The notes: generated from the sequence alone by a model not told the origin. Positions 4,630 through 21,844 are shown, counted from the first letter of the stretch. The stretch is 47,291 bases of DNA from a virus (IMGVR_UViG_3300045988_141056:1-47291), one strand, 5' to 3'. Numbers and translations: made by a program.

Positions 4630-5196
4630 CTAAACATTATTACTGCTCCAGATGTCTGAGCGGGTTAAATCTGGACGCTCCGCATGAATCGGTCGGATAT
4701 CTGGCTGGCGACGACCAAACACCAACCCATAGCTTGTAGTACCGTTTGCAGCTTCTTTTGCACTGGCAAGCAAGTCCTTCAAATGGTCGAACACCTGGGA
4801 ACGTTTGTCTGAGGTCTGCCCTTGCTGATAATCATAGAGCCTGGCACTGTCGGCTAACAACTCTTGCAGACACTCAACGGCAGCACCGTTCACGCCGTAC
4901 GTATCAATCATACCCTTTAGCTGTTCATCAGAATATCCAGCATAGCTGTATTCTACATCAACTACTGCGTCCATCTCTGGAGCTGCAAGAAACAGAATCT
5001 GTCCGCTGGAGGCAACAACCTTATAATCGCCATCTGGGCGTTTAGAGCCATTGATACTAACTACTACGTTAAAGACATTGTGGTATGACAAGCCATATTC
5101 AGTGGTGTTCCCGTCGCCCTCGAAGCGGTCAACAAACTTTTTTGAGCTGTCGCCGATACGACGACGTAGTTTTTCGAGCTGTTCCACTGTTGCCAT
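4630..5196 (-). CDS. hypothetical structural protein, possibly a head-tail connector
   Basis: 188-aa ORF immediately after the capsid gene and its terminator. Confidence 0.35.
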   Translation of the reverse strand: MATVEQLEKLRRRIGDSSKKFVDRFEGDGNTTEYGLSYHNVFNVVVSINGSKRPDGDYKVVASSGQILFLAAPEMDAVVDVEYSYAGYSDEQLKGMIDTYGVNGAAVECLQELLADSARLYDYQQGQTSDKRSQVFDHLKDLLASAKEAANGTTSYGLVFGRRQPDIRPIHAERPDLTRSDIWSSNNV

Positions 5197-5375
5197 ATTA
5201 TTATCTCCTTTTCAATATCCCTATTATATCACAAATCGGATGCTCTAGTTAGCATCCGACTATTACGGTAATCACTAAAATGGAGTGGTGGAACTAGCCA
5301 TTGTTTATGCCTAAAAAACTTCAACGCGTGGGAGCGATAACTTATGGCAGGCACTAGCTTTCCCATCTCCATAAT

Positions 5376-5406
5376 AACAAAAAGAGCTGGTTTTATCCAG
5401 CCCTTT
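5376..5406 (-). terminator. candidate intrinsic terminator or attenuator downstream of the major capsid gene
   Basis: On the minus strand: AAGGGCUGG-AUAAAA-CCAGCUCUU followed by a UUUGUUAUU tract, 20 nt after the capsid stop codon. A second hairpin (cggatgct/agcatccg) lies at 5236..5257. Confidence 0.4.
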
Positions 5407-5425
5407 CTGCCCTCTATCCCAACTG

Positions 5426-6484
5426 CTAGGCAGCTGAGATTTTGATTGCACCGTTCTCACCACCAAGTGCAGCCAATGCACCACGGCGAGTACGACCTAC
5501 AACCTGGGAGAGAATCAAACGGCTCAAGTCACCATCACCAGAATCGGTACGCAAGTCGTGCTTGATTTTCTCCTTAAAGTTGAGTTTCGGCACGAGCAGG
5601 TAAACAGTACCTTGTGGCACACCCTGGTAGTCGTAGTGGTCTTCACCTACATCGATTGACGCGCCGTCATATGGTACGAACTTGATGTTAGCGAAGTGCT
5701 GCTGCAGCTGACCTGGCTTGTTGTTTACGTACAAGTCTGACGCAAACACGTTCTGGATAGCCAAGGTGTCAAAGCTGTTGTGCAGAACGACAGAACCCTT
5801 TGGCAAGATTTGCATAGCAGCACGCCATACAGCCTTGTCTGTGATATCACCCTTAATCTTCTGAGCAACACCTGGTTTCTTTACGCCCTGACCCTTCTGA
5901 GCCTTAGCTGCTGCCAAGATATCTGCCTGCGAGCTTGTGCCAGTTGTAGTGCCTGAGTACACACCGTTGACAATCAAGCCAAGGTGCAAGTGGTTCAGCA
6001 AGTGGTTGTATGATTTACCAAAGCTTTCACCGATTGAGGCAACACGCCATGTCTGGTTGTACTCTGCGATATCTTCATCGTATTCGATACCAGAAGCCCA
6101 AGTACGCATGGTGATAGTCTTCTCTTCGCCAGCACCGAATGAACCGAACTTGATTTCACCGCCTTCGAACTTCTCCAAGAATACGGTTTGGACGTTTCCA
6201 ACAGTCTTCTCTTTCATAACTTCTGGGAAGTTTGCGTCGGTCTGAGTGTCGAAAATATCCTTATAGAGCAGTGGAACTTCCTGACGACCTGCTGCCAAGT
6301 CGAACACGATTTTCTCCAAAAACTCTTTCGCACCGTCGCTAGTACCAATCATTTCTCGAATGGTCGAGCGACCGCTGCGGATGTCATCTGAAAAGTCAAA
6401 GGCTTCAACACGACCCTTTTCACGCATTTCCTGGATGACTTTTTTCTCTGCTTCGAGAGCAGCTTCAGCAAAATTGAACTTCAT
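5426..6484 (-). CDS. major capsid protein
   Basis: 352-aa ORF following the protease-scaffold and decoration genes, with a strong RBS. The N-terminus carries a VIQE|M motif matching the scaffold repeats. Confidence 0.75.
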   Translation of the reverse strand: MKFNFAEAALEAEKKVIQEMREKGRVEAFDFSDDIRSGRSTIREMIGTSDGAKEFLEKIVFDLAAGRQEVPLLYKDIFDTQTDANFPEVMKEKTVGNVQTVFLEKFEGGEIKFGSFGAGEEKTITMRTWASGIEYDEDIAEYNQTWRVASIGESFGKSYNHLLNHLHLGLIVNGVYSGTTTGTSSQADILAAAKAQKGQGVKKPGVAQKIKGDITDKAVWRAAMQILPKGSVVLHNSFDTLAIQNVFASDLYVNNKPGQLQQHFANIKFVPYDGASIDVGEDHYDYQGVPQGTVYLLVPKLNFKEKIKHDLRTDSGDGDLSRLILSQVVGRTRRGALAALGGENGAIKISAA

Positions 6485-15204: not shown

Positions 15205-15642
15205 TTATTTTTTATAGTATCCACGACGGCTGAGTACTTTCAGGACTCTACCGAAAATATCCGCAATCAAATTACCGAGGTCTGTAGCATCGATTGATAT
15301 GCAGTCCACAGCCAAATCATCCTTATTTATTTTATCAGCCCTATAGATATGAAGAGCTGCTCTAATACACTCACGAAGAACCACACCCCCAGCTAACCCA
15401 TTTCTATGCAATCGTATAACCGCTATCTTTGCGTTACCATCATATGGTTGAGTGATTGAATCGTAGTCTCGTTTGTATATGTCCAATCCCTTTTGTCTGC
15501 TAAACGACTCTGTGCAACGATAAAGACGCTCCCTGTCACTATATACGAACACCTTGACTATGCGTATTCTCCCGCTCTTGTTTGTCGTGATAGAAAATCT
15601 ATTGATATTAGAACCAGCCATAATATTTTCTACGCTCATCAA
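15205..15642 (-). CDS. hypothetical protein
   Basis: 145-aa ORF overlapping the 3' end of the Fic gene. Confidence 0.4.
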   Translation of the reverse strand: MMSVENIMAGSNINRFSITTNKSGRIRIVKVFVYSDRERLYRCTESFSRQKGLDIYKRDYDSITQPYDGNAKIAVIRLHRNGLAGGVVLRECIRAALHIYRADKINKDDLAVDCISIDATDLGNLIADIFGRVLKVLSRRGYYKK

Positions 15643-16138
15643 AGCGTATTAACGTAGGCTTGCAGCCTATCTTTTTTTCAAACAGCCACATCAACATACG
15701 ACCAGTACGACCGTTTCCATCACAGAACGGGTGAATATGCTCGAAGCGAACATGCAATGCTCTAGCAACCTCCGCAGGAACATCCTGACGCTTTATCCAT
15801 TTGTTCACATCTCTGACCCAGGACTCCATAGCGTCATAGACGAGAGCGGGGGCTAAACCTTCACGGTCACCAACCCACACCCGTTGCCCACTAACATTGC
15901 GATAATTGCCACGCCAAAACAGCTGCAAGTCTGTTTGATGAGACACAACCCATTTCTGAACACGACATATGCTCTGATGAGTAAATGGACTGTCTGAGGC
16001 TACCAATTCATCCCAGGCTATCAAGGAGGCGATATCGGCACGCTCACTGTCATACCCCTCAATGAGATTTGACTCATGGACATGCTGATACATCTCGTGG
16101 CTCTTGTAGTTTTTACTACTGACCATCAACATATTCAA
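15608..16138 (-). CDS. Fic/Doc-family protein (AMPylase/toxin-like)
   Basis: Canonical Fic motif HPFCDGNGRTGR. A candidate inhibitory motif SNLIEG ([ST]xxxE[GN]) lies near the N-terminus. Confidence 0.75.
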   Translation of the reverse strand: MNMLMVSSKNYKSHEMYQHVHESNLIEGYDSERADIASLIAWDELVASDSPFTHQSICRVQKWVVSHQTDLQLFWRGNYRNVSGQRVWVGDREGLAPALVYDAMESWVRDVNKWIKRQDVPAEVARALHVRFEHIHPFCDGNGRTGRMLMWLFEKKIGCKPTLIRFDERRKYYGWF

Positions 16139-17084
16139 TATCCTTTTTGCTCTTTGCCAAGTAGTACTTAGAAGAAGCTAGGCTCTCGACATAGCTGTCT
16201 GAGATAATATCAAGGAAAACTCTTGCATCTTTCTCGTCCATAATGATAATACGCTGGTCATCGGTGACCATAAGCTCAAGACAAAACTTTTGAGCAATCT
16301 TAATGACTTCAGACTGAGGAATCACACCAATCTCTAAGTTCTGCATCTTATTCACAAGCGTACTGCTATCTTTCACAAAATCAGCAAAACCTAAACCGAT
16401 TGTGACAGGGAAGTTGAACTTGTAAAACTCCTCTAACTGCTTGCCCTTCTCTTGGACAACAACCATTTTTCGAGCCTCATATTTGAACATTTTTTCAAAC
16501 TTTGAGAGGTCAAACATAAAAATGTCACTACCTGTAACCAGCACCTGGTTACCTGTTGGAATCTTAAATGCACCACTAGCACCAAGCTTTTTAATAGAGC
16601 CAGCGTGGATAGTCCACGCGGTACTTTCAACCAAGAACGAAGACTTCTGCAACTGTTTAATAACATAAAAAACATCTTTTGGATTTTCAACATTGACATA
16701 CCTAACAATAATACCTCTCATATTCATAACAGCATTCTCGTAGGGGTCAAACTCTTTAATATCCTTCAAACGCTCGAACTGGTCAAGGATTACGTCTACA
16801 CGCATCACCTCACTAACCTTAGCCGTCCAAAAAATCTTCTGCTCGTCCTCACCTTTATAAGAAATATGGCGAACATTAGCACCTGTTCCAGCACCAAGCT
16901 CGACTTCTTTTATAACATCATAAAGAAACAGCTCATCTAAGTCTTTTTTAGACACTTCGTTAGAAGTACCAATCGAATAAACTGTAAAATTATTATTGAA
17001 CAAATAAAGCTCTGGTGCGTACTTATCTCTGTCCGCATCTAGTTTATTTATAAAGAGAAAAATATCTGTTGTGTTCTCTTCCAT
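16116..17084 (-). CDS. hypothetical 322-aa protein overlapping the Fic gene by 23 nt
   Basis: Long AT-rich ORF with an AAAGGAGG RBS. I recognised no motif. Confidence 0.5.
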   Translation of the reverse strand: MEENTTDIFLFINKLDADRDKYAPELYLFNNNFTVYSIGTSNEVSKKDLDELFLYDVIKEVELGAGTGANVRHISYKGEDEQKIFWTAKVSEVMRVDVILDQFERLKDIKEFDPYENAVMNMRGIIVRYVNVENPKDVFYVIKQLQKSSFLVESTAWTIHAGSIKKLGASGAFKIPTGNQVLVTGSDIFMFDLSKFEKMFKYEARKMVVVQEKGKQLEEFYKFNFPVTIGLGFADFVKDSSTLVNKMQNLEIGVIPQSEVIKIAQKFCLELMVTDDQRIIIMDEKDARVFLDIISDSYVESLASSKYYLAKSKKDIEYVDGQ

Positions 17085-17927: not shown

Positions 17928-18162
17928 TTATCATCTCAATCAATTTGGCATTCCTTTTATCTATTTTAGCCAAGTTCTCACGCAATTGTTTATCTATATT
18001 TTTAGCAGCTCTTCTAGTATCTTCATCTACTATCGCTTTGTTCAAAGCTATTTTATTTGCCGTGTGCAGCTCGGCAGATATAGCCTCAAGTGCTGCTCCG
18101 CATTTGATTAGCCCCACAAATAACCAATAATTTTCATTCATTTTCTTCTTCCTCCTTCTCAT
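17896..18162 (-). CDS. hypothetical protein
   Basis: 88-aa ORF. Confidence 0.4.
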   Translation of the reverse strand: MRRRKKKMNENYWLFVGLIKCGAALEAISAELHTANKIALNKAIVDEDTRRAAKNIDKQLRENLAKIDKRNAKLIEMINESIQEEKDD

Positions 18163-18895
18163 CTTGTTCTTTTTCTAATTGCTCAAGCCTTTCAGATGCA
18201 AGGTCTAGCATATATGACATAATCCCAGCGATATTTCTGATATCTTTATACTTGCTAATACGCTGGACGGTTTCAGCAAACTTATTGAACTCTTCTCTGT
18301 CTGCCATATATTTCTTTGCAGAAGGCTCTAGCTGGTCAATGAAATCTTCAAACCTATCAGCTCCGCTCTTCATGAACATGATATAGATTGGTTCAAAATC
18401 AAACTCTACATCAATATCATCTGTTGGGATACTCGGCACTTCCACGTTGATTTCTAAATCAGTCAAGCCACTTGCTAATTTAGCGTTGATATCTTCAATG
18501 CTATCATACAGCTGTTTTAATAGTTCTTGGTTGTCGTAACCAGACAACGCATTGTGTGCAAGCTGCTTTGAGATAATCTCATCCTCACTCAGCTCTCGTT
18601 CGATAACCAGTACAGGGATAACCATCAAGCCAGCAGAACGACTAGCACGTGTTCTATGGTGACCAGAAATAATCATAAACTCATGACGGTCTCCTGGCAT
18701 TTTCCATACCAACGGCAAGCTTTCGAGCATGCCTTCATCTCGGATATTTTCGGTCAACCGACGGAACTTGTCATCATCCATGACACGTGCGTTGACATCT
18801 CGCTCTCGCAATTGGTCAAGGTGAACCTTCCAAATTGCTAACCCAGGCGACAGTTCCAACAATCGCTCTGGCTCAGGTATATCAGTTTTTGCCAT
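18134..18895 (-). CDS. ParB-like nuclease-domain (ParB/Srx fold) protein
   Basis: N-terminal region with the motif MIISGHHRTRAS resembling the ParB N-terminal domain. Overlaps the upstream putative methyltransferase gene by 14 nt. Confidence 0.45.
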   Translation of the reverse strand: MAKTDIPEPERLLELSPGLAIWKVHLDQLRERDVNARVMDDDKFRRLTENIRDEGMLESLPLVWKMPGDRHEFMIISGHHRTRASRSAGLMVIPVLVIERELSEDEIISKQLAHNALSGYDNQELLKQLYDSIEDINAKLASGLTDLEINVEVPSIPTDDIDVEFDFEPIYIMFMKSGADRFEDFIDQLEPSAKKYMADREEFNKFAETVQRISKYKDIRNIAGIMSYMLDLASERLEQLEKEQDEKEEEENE

Positions 18896-20378
18896 TCTTT
18901 TGCTCCTTTTTTAGCCTTAACTTTTCTAAATACTCTTTCTCTTCTTCTAAAAATACCTTCACAACATCAGAGAATGTATCGTCACGAAAATCAGCCCAGT
19001 ACATAATTTTATACATACCATTAGGCATCCTTTCCCTCTTCTCAATCTTCAAGATACCACTATTCAATTTCACATGACGGTACTTGGCTAAGCATGTAGT
19101 CCTCAGCCCTTTTACAGTCCAATACCTATTTACCTTTGCAGTAGTATTCCTAATCACTTCACCAAACTCAGCAGACGTGATAGCCCACATCAACAGCCTA
19201 TTAACTCTTGGATACCTTTTTGAAGGTGCAGAAAAGCCATAATTCTCAAACACGTAGTCACTCTGTAGCCTGTAGAGCTGCCCCAACATCACAGCTAGCG
19301 TAGAAAAGACCTTGCCATCAACCAGCATTAGATAATACGCCTCGCCTTTCGTGTTACCCAATTTATGAGCCCAAACATCACGATAATACAAAGCAACCTG
19401 TTCCTTCACAGGTACAAACATGATTTTGCTGTCCTCTCTTATTTCATCATTTGCACCAAACATCGGTGCTTTATACGGCACAAACTTCTTACGTCCAAAC
19501 GATTTAATCGAACGATTGCTCTCAAAATCGTCAAGCAGTTCTGGCTTAGTCATCAGCCAATAGTCCACCTTATTGACCTTATACTCTTTGGCATAGATAA
19601 CCTCTCTCGGGTCAAATCCATCTACACTACGGCTACGATACCAGATAAACGGTGTACTCAGCTCACGAGACTTCTCATAAATACCCTTGTATTCCTTGCT
19701 AAAATTGAACTCGGCAATCTGCGGGTCAAACTTGATACGTTCACCGAAGTCAAACATTTTTGTGTAACCTTTAGCGAATACTGGAGGGTTCACGACTACT
19801 AAATGACCTTCTGGCTTATCTTCAACGTCATCTCGCAGGTCTTTGATTTCATAATGAATACCCTTAAAGTACTTAACCATCTCTTGAATCTGACCCCTCA
19901 TCCTGTCAATGTGATAATCTTTACGCATTTTTAGGTCATCAAGCTGAGGTTTCATATAGTGGATTTTCTCCATCTGACAAACCTTCATAATCCACATCAA
20001 AAAAGCAGCTTTATCGATATCAGAATCGTACGTGTCATATTCTATCTTTAGGTTAGGCTCTAGCTCAAAGTCTATACAATCAATACCTACACCGCTAAAC
20101 AAATACCCCAGCAAAGAAGAAAACAGCGACACGTCGCTGGTATAAATATTCTCCCTGTCATACCCAGCTTCTATAGCACACCTAGCTAGCGTGAACTGCC
20201 CAACGGCGGGCAGATGAATTACTGGATGAGTCTTGACGAGATGCTTCAGCACTGCAACGAGGTAACGCCGCTGGTCTGCGGGCGTGTGTCCAAGGAAAAT
20301 TGACTCTGCTTTGCTGACTGCCATCTTCGCCTCCTTTTGTTCAAAATAATTTCTTGGCTGAGGGGGAAGGATTTGCAC
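18882..20378 (-). CDS. putative DNA N6-adenine methyltransferase-like protein (alpha-class motif order) with a long C-terminal extension
   Basis: A motif I-like segment (AVGQFTLARC, about aa 58) and an NPPV segment (HLVVVNPPVF, about aa 205) are spaced like FxGxG and DPPY in Dam-type enzymes. The match is weak. Confidence 0.35.
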   Translation of the reverse strand: MQILPPQPRNYFEQKEAKMAVSKAESIFLGHTPADQRRYLVAVLKHLVKTHPVIHLPAVGQFTLARCAIEAGYDRENIYTSDVSLFSSLLGYLFSGVGIDCIDFELEPNLKIEYDTYDSDIDKAAFLMWIMKVCQMEKIHYMKPQLDDLKMRKDYHIDRMRGQIQEMVKYFKGIHYEIKDLRDDVEDKPEGHLVVVNPPVFAKGYTKMFDFGERIKFDPQIAEFNFSKEYKGIYEKSRELSTPFIWYRSRSVDGFDPREVIYAKEYKVNKVDYWLMTKPELLDDFESNRSIKSFGRKKFVPYKAPMFGANDEIREDSKIMFVPVKEQVALYYRDVWAHKLGNTKGEAYYLMLVDGKVFSTLAVMLGQLYRLQSDYVFENYGFSAPSKRYPRVNRLLMWAITSAEFGEVIRNTTAKVNRYWTVKGLRTTCLAKYRHVKLNSGILKIEKRERMPNGMYKIMYWADFRDDTFSDVVKVFLEEEKEYLEKLRLKKEQKNGKN

Positions 20379-20472
20379 CCGCCATTGCCTGTTTCAGAAA
20401 CAGGTAGCCTACTATTAGCTGACCCCTCAATAGTAGCTGTGCTACGTTTTAATATTAGCACAGCTTTTTGAT

Positions 20473-21333
20473 TTAGTCTACAACTAAACCGTATTCAGCA
20501 CATTTTTCAAAACCGCCGTGATAGGTAACCCAATCACCAGCCTTGCTGATAACCTCATCAAACAGTACCGTCTTCTTTGAGCCATCCTCAAACACGAACG
20601 TAACAGCACAATCGCCGATTGCACACCTTGCTTTCACTGCCATATTTTTCTCTTGTGCAAGCATAAAGCAGTAGATGTTCACACTAACGTCTGCCTTGGT
20701 TAGGTCTTTGTTCCACATCGCACCACCGCCAAGCGGGCATTCAACTGAATAAAAATCACAAGCCAGCTTCCTGCCTGTTAGTCCAGTATCCACGTCGATA
20801 CCACCCGTCCATTCTCCAATCGGATTGACAAGCAGCTTGTAGCCTAGCTTTTGGCAAAAATCATCCAAGTCAGCTGTCTTAACATTAGACCAGGATACGA
20901 CTCCATCTCCGCCAGAAGTCAATACAAGCTTTCCATCAAATGGATATTTCTGGTAGATTTTCTGAGCTAACTGCTTAGCTTCCATGTGAGTTTTCGGCAT
21001 TGGATAACCAGCAAACAATCCCTGGTCTCCGCAATAACTGTGTTTCTGGGACTGATTTTTTGCAAGCTTCTCATCCTGCTTGTAGTAATCAAACTCAACC
21101 GACTTAATATCTGGGCAAATCCTTTGACAAATGAGAATAACCTCCATCTGCTTGATATCTTCACTCGTCTCAACAATCACATAAGCCTTGCCATGACCGA
21201 CCATAACCTCGGCTGCCATTGTTGCTTTATGATTCTTTGAATAAGCCAAATCCACTAACGCACCAGCAATCCTATCGGCGATACGGTCTGGATGAGATGG
21301 ACTAACTACTTCGCTATATTCAGTTTTGTTCAT
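20473..21333 (-). CDS. metK: S-adenosylmethionine synthetase (MetK-like, truncated 286 aa)
   Basis: Matches MetK signature blocks: SHPDRIADRIAGALVD (GHPDKIADQISD), CGDQGLFAGY (GAGDQGLMFGYA), GGIDVDTGLTGRKL (GGPMGDCGLTGRKI) and GGGAMWNKDLTKADVS (GGGAFSGKDPSKVDRS). Confidence 0.8.
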   Translation of the reverse strand: MNKTEYSEVVSPSHPDRIADRIAGALVDLAYSKNHKATMAAEVMVGHGKAYVIVETSEDIKQMEVILICQRICPDIKSVEFDYYKQDEKLAKNQSQKHSYCGDQGLFAGYPMPKTHMEAKQLAQKIYQKYPFDGKLVLTSGGDGVVSWSNVKTADLDDFCQKLGYKLLVNPIGEWTGGIDVDTGLTGRKLACDFYSVECPLGGGAMWNKDLTKADVSVNIYCFMLAQEKNMAVKARCAIGDCAVTFVFEDGSKKTVLFDEVISKAGDWVTYHGGFEKCAEYGLVVD

Positions 21334-21343
21334 TTTACACTCC

Positions 21344-21775
21344 CTATACTAATTTACTTTGCTGAGAGAACACAACAGGCTCTTTATCGTAGAGCAAATG
21401 CACAACCTTCAAACCTCGACTATCGAACTCTGGAGCTAGAACAGAGCTACGGTGACAATTCTTCGGGTCTTTTTCTGAGCAGCAAAGAGCCATAATTTCA
21501 CCTTCTTCTGCTCGTGCGGTGATTTCGTCGTATGTTTCTTCAACATCTACGTTACCCGCTAGACCACCCATATTCCTACCTCGGTGCTCATATTTTATCC
21601 CGTTAGCCTCAAGTACTGGCTTCATCTGGTTATGGTTGAACCACGGACACCATCGGCTGTACGGCTTTGTACGACAATCGATTAGAGTTTCTACACCCCC
21701 GCTTTTTAGCAGTTCGACAAACTCGTTGATAGTCTTGTTGCTGTGACCTATTGTAAATATTGTTGGTTCTGTCAT
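21344..21775 (-). CDS. DUF488-family protein
   Basis: The stretch TIFTIGHSNKTINEFVELLK ... LIDCR matches the conserved DUF488 (YeaO-like) N-terminus. Start at 21775 with a GGAGGCG RBS. Confidence 0.5.
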   Translation of the reverse strand: MTEPTIFTIGHSNKTINEFVELLKSGGVETLIDCRTKPYSRWCPWFNHNQMKPVLEANGIKYEHRGRNMGGLAGNVDVEETYDEITARAEEGEIMALCCSEKDPKNCHRSSVLAPEFDSRGLKVVHLLYDKEPVVFSQQSKLV

Positions 21776-21844
21776 TTTTTTCGCCTCCTTTAATCTTAAT
21801 GACTTATTTTTATTATAGCACATTCTCGCACATTTTAGAATATG

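Follow-up and report, generated by a model that had tools for sequence, protein, structure and literature searches.

A widespread phage module of a tRNA gene, a Dam-like/GNAT-like fusion enzyme and a ParB-like protein: a candidate tRNA-dependent DNA-modification system ahead of the packaging genes

Introduction

What function unites a DUF488 protein, a homologue of S-adenosylmethionine (SAM) synthetase, a methyltransferase-like protein and a ParB-like protein that are encoded in one block of a phage genome? The question is raised by positions 18134..21823 of IMGVR_UViG_3300045988_141056, a phage genome segment of 47,291 nucleotides (the window) on which essentially all genes lie on the minus strand. 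A first-pass annotation made from the sequence alone had read these four contiguous open reading frames (ORFs) as a SAM-centred epigenetic or anti-restriction module. All four are indeed present on the minus strand, in the order of transcription DUF488, MetK-like, 498-aa ORF and ParB_N, with DUF488 and not, as annotated, the MetK-like gene at the head. The genes that are conserved together in related loci form another set, the core of which is a tRNA gene, a fusion of a Dam-like with a GNAT-like domain and the ParB-like protein, usually with DUF488; apart from two lineages, the roughly 40 others have no MetK, and a conserved SAM-centred four-gene operon is rejected. We read the core as machinery for the ParB-assisted, tRNA-dependent hypermodification of phage DNA at adenine N6 just before packaging, at a probability of roughly 45%, and we put it at a little under even odds that the block serves to modify DNA after replication, its genes standing directly before those for packaging. 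The module is widespread and undescribed in the searchable literature, and it builds on known ParB-linked DNA-modification loci and on tRNA-dependent GNAT modification. The features of the block, in order of transcription, are as follows.

21344..21775, minus strand: DUF488 gene, 143 aa if read from ATG 21775, with 21823 as the start of the longest ORF; PF04343, 57.9 bits against 22.2, E = 2e-15
20473..21333, minus strand: short SAM synthetase homologue (mini-MetK), 286 aa; PF00438, E = 1e-10, and PF02773, E = 1e-9
20435..20465, minus strand: hairpin with a perfect 10-bp stem (AGCUGUGCUA...UAGCACAGCU), read directly from the sequence
20355..20429, minus strand: tRNA gene; Rfam RF00005, 41.3 bits against a gathering score of 29, E = 2e-6
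18882..20324, minus strand: Dam-like/GNAT-like fusion enzyme (Dam/GNAT), 480 aa; PF22555 and PF22559, start at ATG 20324
19569..20297, minus strand: Dam-like domain of the fusion; conserved residues resembling motifs X, I, II, III and IV
18939..19433, minus strand: GNAT-like domain of the fusion; PF22559 and invariant residues
18134..18895, minus strand: ParB-like partner, 253 aa; PF02195, 37.8 bits, E = 2e-9; phrog_7405, E = 2.9e-55

The block has no megablast match among 50,697 phage records, and promoter and terminator scans gave hits at chance level only. Homologous loci comprise 42 from viral or metagenomic contigs, the close relative L043, two cultured phages and 11 genome-derived loci. 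Linked genes were traced by iterated hidden Markov models (HMMs), and the loci were dereplicated to 32 + 11 lineages; counts of tRNAs cover the lineages with upstream sequence, about 40 in all.

The Dam-like/GNAT-like fusion enzyme

The length of 498 aa first assigned to the enzyme is too great. The GTG start (20378) of that ORF (20378..18882) falls within the tRNA gene, an AAGGAGG ribosome-binding site (RBS) lies 5 nt ahead of ATG 20324, and a 99% identical homologue (P0001) is also 480 aa long; the start is therefore ATG 20324. The protein matches PF22555 (DAM-like-phage1 in Pfam) in its N-terminal part with 112.7 bits (E = 2.5e-32) and PF22559 (GNAT-phage-like) in its C-terminal part with 64.2 bits (E = 1.7e-17), each against a cut-off of 27, and both domains occur in 71 of 73 homologues. 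The family comprises 1203 cluster representatives (50% identity) at E ≤ 1e-3 and 885 at E ≤ 1e-10, the full-length representatives listed being mostly 450-500 aa long. Members occur in metagenome-assembled genomes (MAGs) of Bacteroidota, Acidobacteriota, Desulfobacterota, Planctomycetota and Patescibacteria, and also in Amorphus coralli. No paper describing PF22555, PF22559 or the Dam-like/GNAT architecture was found in the searchable literature, including the Aravind-lab papers covered. Some members are longer (L042 8510-10894; P0250 and P0270, 746-749 aa), with about 270 extra N-terminal residues and the Dam/GNAT match beginning at about residue 450, and these carry a putative additional domain.

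In the family-wide alignment, the Dam-like domain has F10-x-G12 at the position of Dam motif X, followed after beta1 by P39-x-x-G42-x-F44 (consensus PAxGQF, PAVGQF in the window protein), a motif I in which a near-invariant Phe is found instead of the second Gly. S63-D64 at the end of beta2 corresponds to the ribose-binding acid of motif II, D162 after beta3 resembles motif III, and N179-P180-P181-x-[F/Y] after beta4 resembles motif IV with the aromatic residue one position later (N-P-P-V-F in the window); PAVGQF and NPPV are conserved across the family. The domain has the Rossmann fold and the motif order X-I-II-III-(helical insert)-IV, whereas the Dam/alpha-group consensus of FxGxG and (D/N/S)PP(Y/F/W) is not found in it and the protein matches no standard Dam family in Pfam. 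Judged from alignment and model, the pocket for an adenosyl ligand and a flipped adenine seems to have been kept in altered form. The earlier comparison with alpha-class N6-adenine methyltransferases was right on NPPV and the Dam-like spacing and mistaken in motif I, which reads PxxGxF and not FxGxG, and it overlooked both the GNAT domain and the tRNA.

In the GNAT-like domain, Y313, Y314, R315, H320, L322, G323 and K419 are invariant and E360 is near-invariant, while the Q/RxxGxG/A loop that holds the CoA pyrophosphate is missing and the P-loop glycines are absent. An AlphaFold2 model of the fusion built from 39 homologues (pLDDT 92) has EcoDam as its top Foldseek match, and the closest structures to the N-terminal domain are DNA Dam enzymes and not RNA m6A methyltransferases. 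The proposal that the C-terminal domain is specifically Mom-like was downgraded, as Foldseek ranks ordinary acetyltransferases above Mom; on the predicted model, assignment to GNAT is solid and assignment to Mom only a lead. The protein has no match to the Mom family in Pfam, and hhalign comparison of the domains with EcoDam and Mu Mom is not significant (Mom probability 0.1%), so that the relations to Dam and Mom are argued only from Pfam and structure comparison. Profiles built from the Dam/GNAT and DUF488 alignments likewise found no meaningful match among PDB sequences.

The module tRNA

The tRNA gene lies in the 148-nt gap between MetK and Dam/GNAT, with its body at 20358..20429, an encoded CCA at 20355..20357, and 30 nt from its 3′ end to the Dam/GNAT start codon. 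It has a U1-A72 pair, the discriminator G73, the anticodon loop UUCUGAA with the Gln-type anticodon CUG and the T-loop UGCAAAU. No second tRNA was found in the window, and a search of the gap with Rfam for a SAM riboswitch or other known RNA returned only the tRNA. ARAGORN called no tRNA anywhere in the window, the RF00005-positive gene included, and single-sequence folding of the tRNA is no better than that of shuffles (z = -0.99), so that support for it comes from covariance models and covariation. The gene scores 78.3 bits with our own covariance model R1. In alignment A4, base pairing holds in 88.7% of the cloverleaf cells and compensatory changes affect 18 of the 21 pairs, which is reached by 0 of 500 shuffles. 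The hairpin at 20435..20465 lies 8 nt past the MetK stop codon and 5 nt before the tRNA 5′ end, is not followed by a T run, and may act in processing or as a weak terminator.

The position of the tRNA is a conserved property of the module. In 15 loci, ARAGORN calls a tRNA right ahead of Dam/GNAT. With a covariance model of the module tRNA built from 16 tRNAs, a same-strand tRNA is found at most about 400 nt upstream in 25 of 30 viral or metagenomic lineages and also upstream in six of nine genome loci; overall, about 32 of 40 lineages have an adjacent upstream tRNA, with a gap to the start codon of typically about 20 nt, and 27 of the 34 tRNA matches in 552 kb fall at this one position. The tRNA is 8 kb away in the L018 lineage and upstream of DUF488 in L055. 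The Microbacterium phage ValentiniPuff has DUF488 (gene 112) and the tRNA at its extreme right end and Dam/GNAT, ParB and terminase (genes 1, 2 and 4) at its left end; as the split is made by the termini, the module is contiguous in the circular or concatemeric form. The tRNAs of the Faecalibacterium phage FP_Brigit (L049 4738-4814, NC_047909 13917-13993) and of ValentiniPuff (L051 4856-4929, MH825712 62355-62428) are missing from the GenBank annotation. Two tandem copies of the tRNA precede Dam/GNAT in L015 (8621-8790) and L025 (1519-1675).

The adjacent tRNAs keep U8, A14, A21, G53, A58, C61 and a 7-bp acceptor stem, with acceptor, D and T arms conserved and a D-arm consensus of GUCGUCUA..GGUAGGAC. 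Among 26 of them, U1-A72 is present in 20, G73 in 15 and an encoded CCA in about 16. The anticodons are CUG (7), CUC (7, probably 9 after correction of two mis-registered loops), CUA (2), UUA (2), CUU (1) and a few others, such that about two-thirds have an NUN anticodon (U35). U11-A24 and U13·G22 are identity elements for GluRS, and U1-A72 and G73 are features of tRNA(Gln) recognised by GlnRS and GatCAB; by these rules, the sequences point to probable charging with Glu or Gln. U33 and a purine at position 37 are almost never lost by decoding tRNAs, yet 11 of the 26 lack U33 and in 11 the purine has given way to a pyrimidine, a pattern that speaks for a role outside decoding. Conservation of the body, the acceptor end and C34-U35 in an otherwise relaxed loop fits a tRNA selected for charging and use of its acceptor end and not for the ribosome. 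Such use has parallels in the non-proteinogenic tRNAs that serve Fem-type transferases and in the LanB dehydratases that use Glu-tRNA, where tRNAs likewise deviate from decoding tRNAs and act as aminoacyl donors outside translation; there, however, the acceptors are peptidoglycan precursors or peptides and not DNA, and no Dam-like or ParB component takes part. Amber- or ochre-suppressor-like tRNAs with a CUA or UUA anticodon occupy the module slot in L008 (9908-9983), L009 (1994-2067), L011 (1544-1619) and L006 (5755-5862), and could point either to recoded stop codons in the phages concerned or to drift in an anticodon that is no longer used.

The ParB-like partner, DUF488 and the packaging genes

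The ParB-like gene overlaps Dam/GNAT by 14 nt (18882..18895), in agreement with the first-pass annotation, and its pairing with the Dam-like enzyme, also anticipated there, extends to 31 of the 32 lineages, where it is directly downstream in nearly all, usually overlapping, and about 6 kb away in two. It also follows Dam/GNAT in 9 of the 11 genome loci, and in many loci the terminase genes lie one or two genes past it. The window protein has an NTP-binding-type ParB_N domain with SGHHRTRA as its box II (GxxRxxA), and 30 ParB partners keep EQDxNARVM, SGHHRxRA (box II) and KQLAHNAL. No helix-turn-helix match was found in the window protein with Pfam, and it scores far below the cut-offs of the NCBIfam models for partition-type ParB, ParA and parS not having been searched for specifically; a weak NCBIfam match is to SerK (E = 6e-6).

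For DUF488, the start is probably ATG 21775, which gives the 143 aa also found in P0194 and L043. The Rossmann-like fold resembles that of Cys-phosphatases, including RNA 5′-phosphatases; in the sequence, C107-H108-R109 are invariant, and C99 and E101 hardly vary. Almost every module-linked DUF488 protein (alignment A2) ends, after a variable linker, in Qxx[LM][FL], a tail which we take to resemble the binding motif for the beta sliding clamp; the window protein ends in QQSKLV (21344..21364). In one lineage (L004/L022) the DUF488 gene is directly upstream of, and abuts, a phage DNA_pol3_beta (DnaN) gene. Classical DUF488 is present in 14-15 lineages and the divergent DUF488-N3a/DUF488 cluster of Pfam fills the slot in nine more; counting ValentiniPuff and five genome loci, about 30 of 43 lineages have a gene of the superfamily, usually immediately upstream. 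The expectation that a conserved linkage of DUF488 would be informative is borne out with respect to Dam/GNAT, while MetK is not conserved alongside. Two tandem DUF488 genes are present in L015, and in L002 a NADAR-domain gene (5315-5773) lies between DUF488 and the tRNA-Dam/GNAT pair. In L001, an NCBI MAG contig, a tyrosine integrase (4851-5972) separates DUF488 from the tRNA and a serine recombinase follows downstream, so that integrative elements can evidently carry the module.

The short MetK

The MetK-like protein is a SAM synthetase homologue, as first annotated, by PF00438 and PF02773, but it is a short form: at 286 aa against 384 aa for E. coli MetK it is about 100 residues shorter, it has no match to the Pfam model of the central MetK domain, and it scores 68.2 bits with NCBIfam TIGR01034, below the cut-off of 309.4 bits. 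It belongs to phrog_1569 (annotated as of 'unknown function'; E = 1.3e-50) and matches MetK structures in the PDB with E-values down to 5.5e-18. The catalytic and metal- or phosphate-binding residues (HPD, E42, GDQG, DGK, GLTGRK, GGG(AxxGKD), KD and SKxD) are invariant among 13 short MetKs and E. coli MetK, the equivalence of DGK to K165 being alignment-dependent. The short MetK family is large in phages, at about 274 aa, and its members elsewhere adjoin two N6_N4 methyltransferases, or ParB_N and terminase genes.

Among Dam/GNAT loci, the short MetK is confined to the window lineage, where L043 has it at the same position in an identical gene order; iterated HMMs found no MetK in the 42 related loci or the 11 genome loci. 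FP_Brigit encodes a full-length methionine adenosyltransferase four genes upstream of its Dam/GNAT gene (gp21), which is followed by ParB (gp22), TerS (gp23) and TerL (gp24). MetK has joined the module independently in two distant lineages and is a lineage-specific accessory. A link to SAM is plausible, since the Dam-like motif residues are kept and MetK was acquired twice, even though the SAM synthetase is found in those two lineages only. A phage SAM synthetase near DNA methyltransferases is not in itself new: K00789 (SAM synthetase) is present in 58.9% of Ca. Heliusvirales genomes, and phage MetK beside DNA methyltransferases is a common auxiliary gene (PMC11283538). The window copy resembles these in being a MetK homologue near DNA-modification genes and differs in its truncated length, its assignment to phrog_1569 and its score below the metK equivalog cut-off.

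Two other phages with a short MetK were observed. In L044 (3547-8318), ParB_N is followed by a 306-aa protein without Pfam match, a short MetK, a small ORF and an intein-containing large terminase; the protein of 306 aa is possibly a DNA-modifying enzyme of another kind. In L046, a phage with a short MetK beside the terminase and without Dam/GNAT, a tRNA with anticodon CAU (5853-5928) shares the unusual T-arm GGUGCAAAUCC with the window tRNA.

Proposed mechanism and alternatives

The fusion of Dam-like and GNAT-like domains with a tRNA gene of its own suggests acyl or aminoacyl chemistry and not only methylation. In the mechanism that we propose, a host synthetase would charge the phage tRNA, the body and CUN anticodons of which suggest GluRS or GlnRS; the Dam-like domain would bind DNA and flip the target adenine into the NPPx[F/Y] pocket; and the GNAT domain would take the aminoacyl group off the tRNA and attach it to adenine N6, in the manner of Mu Mom with Gly-tRNA(Gly). 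The ParB-like protein would load or activate the enzyme on double-stranded DNA (dsDNA), as for ParB-dependent phage thymine dioxygenases, and DUF488, which may be tethered to the sliding clamp via Qxx[LM][FL], might be an accessory enzyme with Cys-dependent action on the DNA. Since SAM-type motifs are retained and MetK was recruited twice, there may be an additional or alternative SAM-dependent step, for which the short MetK would raise the SAM supply in this phage; no other methyltransferase was seen among 30 window ORFs in a scan that was not exhaustive, which leaves the Dam-like domain as the sole candidate observed for using SAM.

Three known systems provide precedents. Mu Mom is a GNAT that modifies adenine N6 in dsDNA with Gly-tRNA(Gly) (PMC13219725), and the C-terminal domain of Dam/GNAT shares its fold. 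There is no detectable sequence similarity, and Mom is a single-domain dimer that uses a host tRNA, whereas the module enzyme combines its GNAT part with a Dam-like domain and comes with an adjacent tRNA gene of Glx and not Gly type, a ParB partner and a link to DUF488. In the 5mYOX176/ParB176 system, a phage DNA-modifying enzyme owes its activity on dsDNA to ParB homologues that lack a DNA-binding domain (PMC13229309). The module similarly has a ParB without obvious DNA-binding domain beside what would be a post-replicative DNA-modifying enzyme; ParB is required on dsDNA there, but the enzyme is an Fe/2OG dioxygenase acting on thymine, with no tRNA, DUF488, Dam or GNAT domain. The ParB-methyltransferase-terminase (ParB-Tls) loci of phages described by Iyer and Aravind are predicted to carry out packaging-linked DNA modification (cited in PMC4738411). 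They have a ParB-domain gene and a Dam-group enzyme in the same slot immediately upstream of terminase, and they differ in that their enzymes are active N6A methyltransferases, often fused to ParB, and not a divergent Dam-like domain (PxxGxF, NPPx[FY]) fused to GNAT and preceded by a tRNA. Finally, fusions of the ParB fold to DUF488 exist in archaea (PMC12704722).

Several points weigh against tRNA-dependent hypermodification. About eight of 40 lineages have no adjacent tRNA; the probable amino-acid identity of the tRNA is read from identity rules; the window DUF488 tail ends in V and not in F or L, and its binding to the clamp is suggested by motif resemblance only. The window tRNA has U33 and A37, i.e., a canonical decoding-type loop, and its anticodon corresponds to the Gln codon CAG that this phage prefers (272 against 177), so that it could simply be decoding. 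The Dam-like domain keeps SAM-type motifs, and simple m6A methylation is possible. Every chemical step is one that we infer; architecture, folds, conservation and synteny are what was observed.

The strongest alternative is an ordinary SAM-dependent N6-adenine DNA methyltransferase with ParB as its loader, in which the GNAT domain would be structural or protein-modifying and the tRNA would serve decoding, suppression or RNA processing at an early/late boundary. The Dam fold with its X/I/II/III/IV-like residues is what such an enzyme would retain, although motif I without its second Gly, the displaced aromatic of motif IV and the lack of a standard Dam match fit it poorly. Recruitment of MetK in two lineages, the short MetKs next to N6_N4 methyltransferases in other phages and the want of another methyltransferase among the ORFs scanned all favour a methyl-transfer reaction; the GNAT domain, found in nearly all full-length homologues listed and with its polar residues invariant, argues instead for catalysis. 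For the tRNA, the canonical loop and CAG match in the window and the possible stop-codon suppressors in four loci are in keeping with decoding, but the tRNA keeps one position in phages from many phyla, whereas its anticodon is variable and U33 and R37 are often lost, which is a poor fit to decoding. We consider this reading unlikely.

Less probable is that the tRNA or its amino acid is the substrate and not the donor. The Dam-like/GNAT enzyme would then modify a tRNA adenine or transform the aminoacyl group, the ParB/Srx-fold partner would be an NTP-dependent enzyme (cf. the serine kinase SerK), and the product would be a modified tRNA or a tRNA-borne metabolite. In its favour are the tight coupling of the enzyme and tRNA genes, the kinases within the ParB fold, with the weak match to SerK, and the likeness of DUF488 to RNA 5′-phosphatases; fusions of the ParB fold to RNA-related domains also exist (PMC12704722). 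Against it, the N-terminal domain is structurally nearest to DNA Dam and not to RNA m6A enzymes, many phages have the module directly before terminase, the tail of DUF488 resembles a motif for binding the DNA clamp, and the precedent for the ParB partner lies with DNA-modifying enzymes (PMC13229309).

Slightly less probable still is a tRNA-like element acting in cis as a leader for Dam/GNAT expression, through feedback binding by the enzyme or processing by RNase P/Z near the RBS, and not as a cofactor in trans: in most loci 5-30 nt separate the end of the tRNA from the RBS, about 10 of 26 tRNAs have no encoded CCA and a hairpin directly precedes the tRNA in the window, but the full cloverleaf, the universal tertiary nucleotides and the 7-bp acceptor stem are kept, CCA is encoded in the remainder, and its placements 8 kb off in L018, upstream of DUF488 in L055 and across the genome end in ValentiniPuff mean that the tRNA need not belong to an mRNA leader.

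The hypermodification proposal can be extended to a fuller form, which we regard as doubtful: the tRNA, with a body of Glu/Gln type and a CUN anticodon, would be largely withdrawn from translation, charged by the host and used as donor for an unprecedented amino-acid-derived hypermodification of adenine N6 shortly ahead of packaging, with ParB as clamp or activator and a clamp-tethered DUF488, across many phyla and more than 1000 clusters at 50% identity. To our knowledge, Mu Mom is the only enzyme known to modify DNA with a charged tRNA, and this has been established only recently. If true, the module would be a second tRNA-using DNA modification, architecturally unlike Mom, far more widespread and equipped with its own tRNA, a base-flipping Dam-like domain and a ParB partner; it would give a biochemical context to DUF488 and to phage ParB-terminase loci and would account for an orphan phage tRNA for which decoding creates no obvious need. 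Novel DNA adducts would be relevant to phage resistance to restriction and CRISPR and to sequencing and enzymology tools. The proposal is testable in two cultured carriers, FP_Brigit and ValentiniPuff. Overall, the earlier interpretation of the block is partly supported.

Neighbouring genes

Further downstream on the minus strand are genes for RecT, endolysin, portal, capsid and tail proteins. Five genes downstream of ParB, at 15608..17084 on the minus strand, lie genes for a KwaB-like protein (PF16162, 322 aa) and, after it, a protein with a Fic domain (PF02661, HPFCDGNGRTGR motif). The two genes are also kept in the related contig L043 and may constitute an anti-defence or host-modifying pair.

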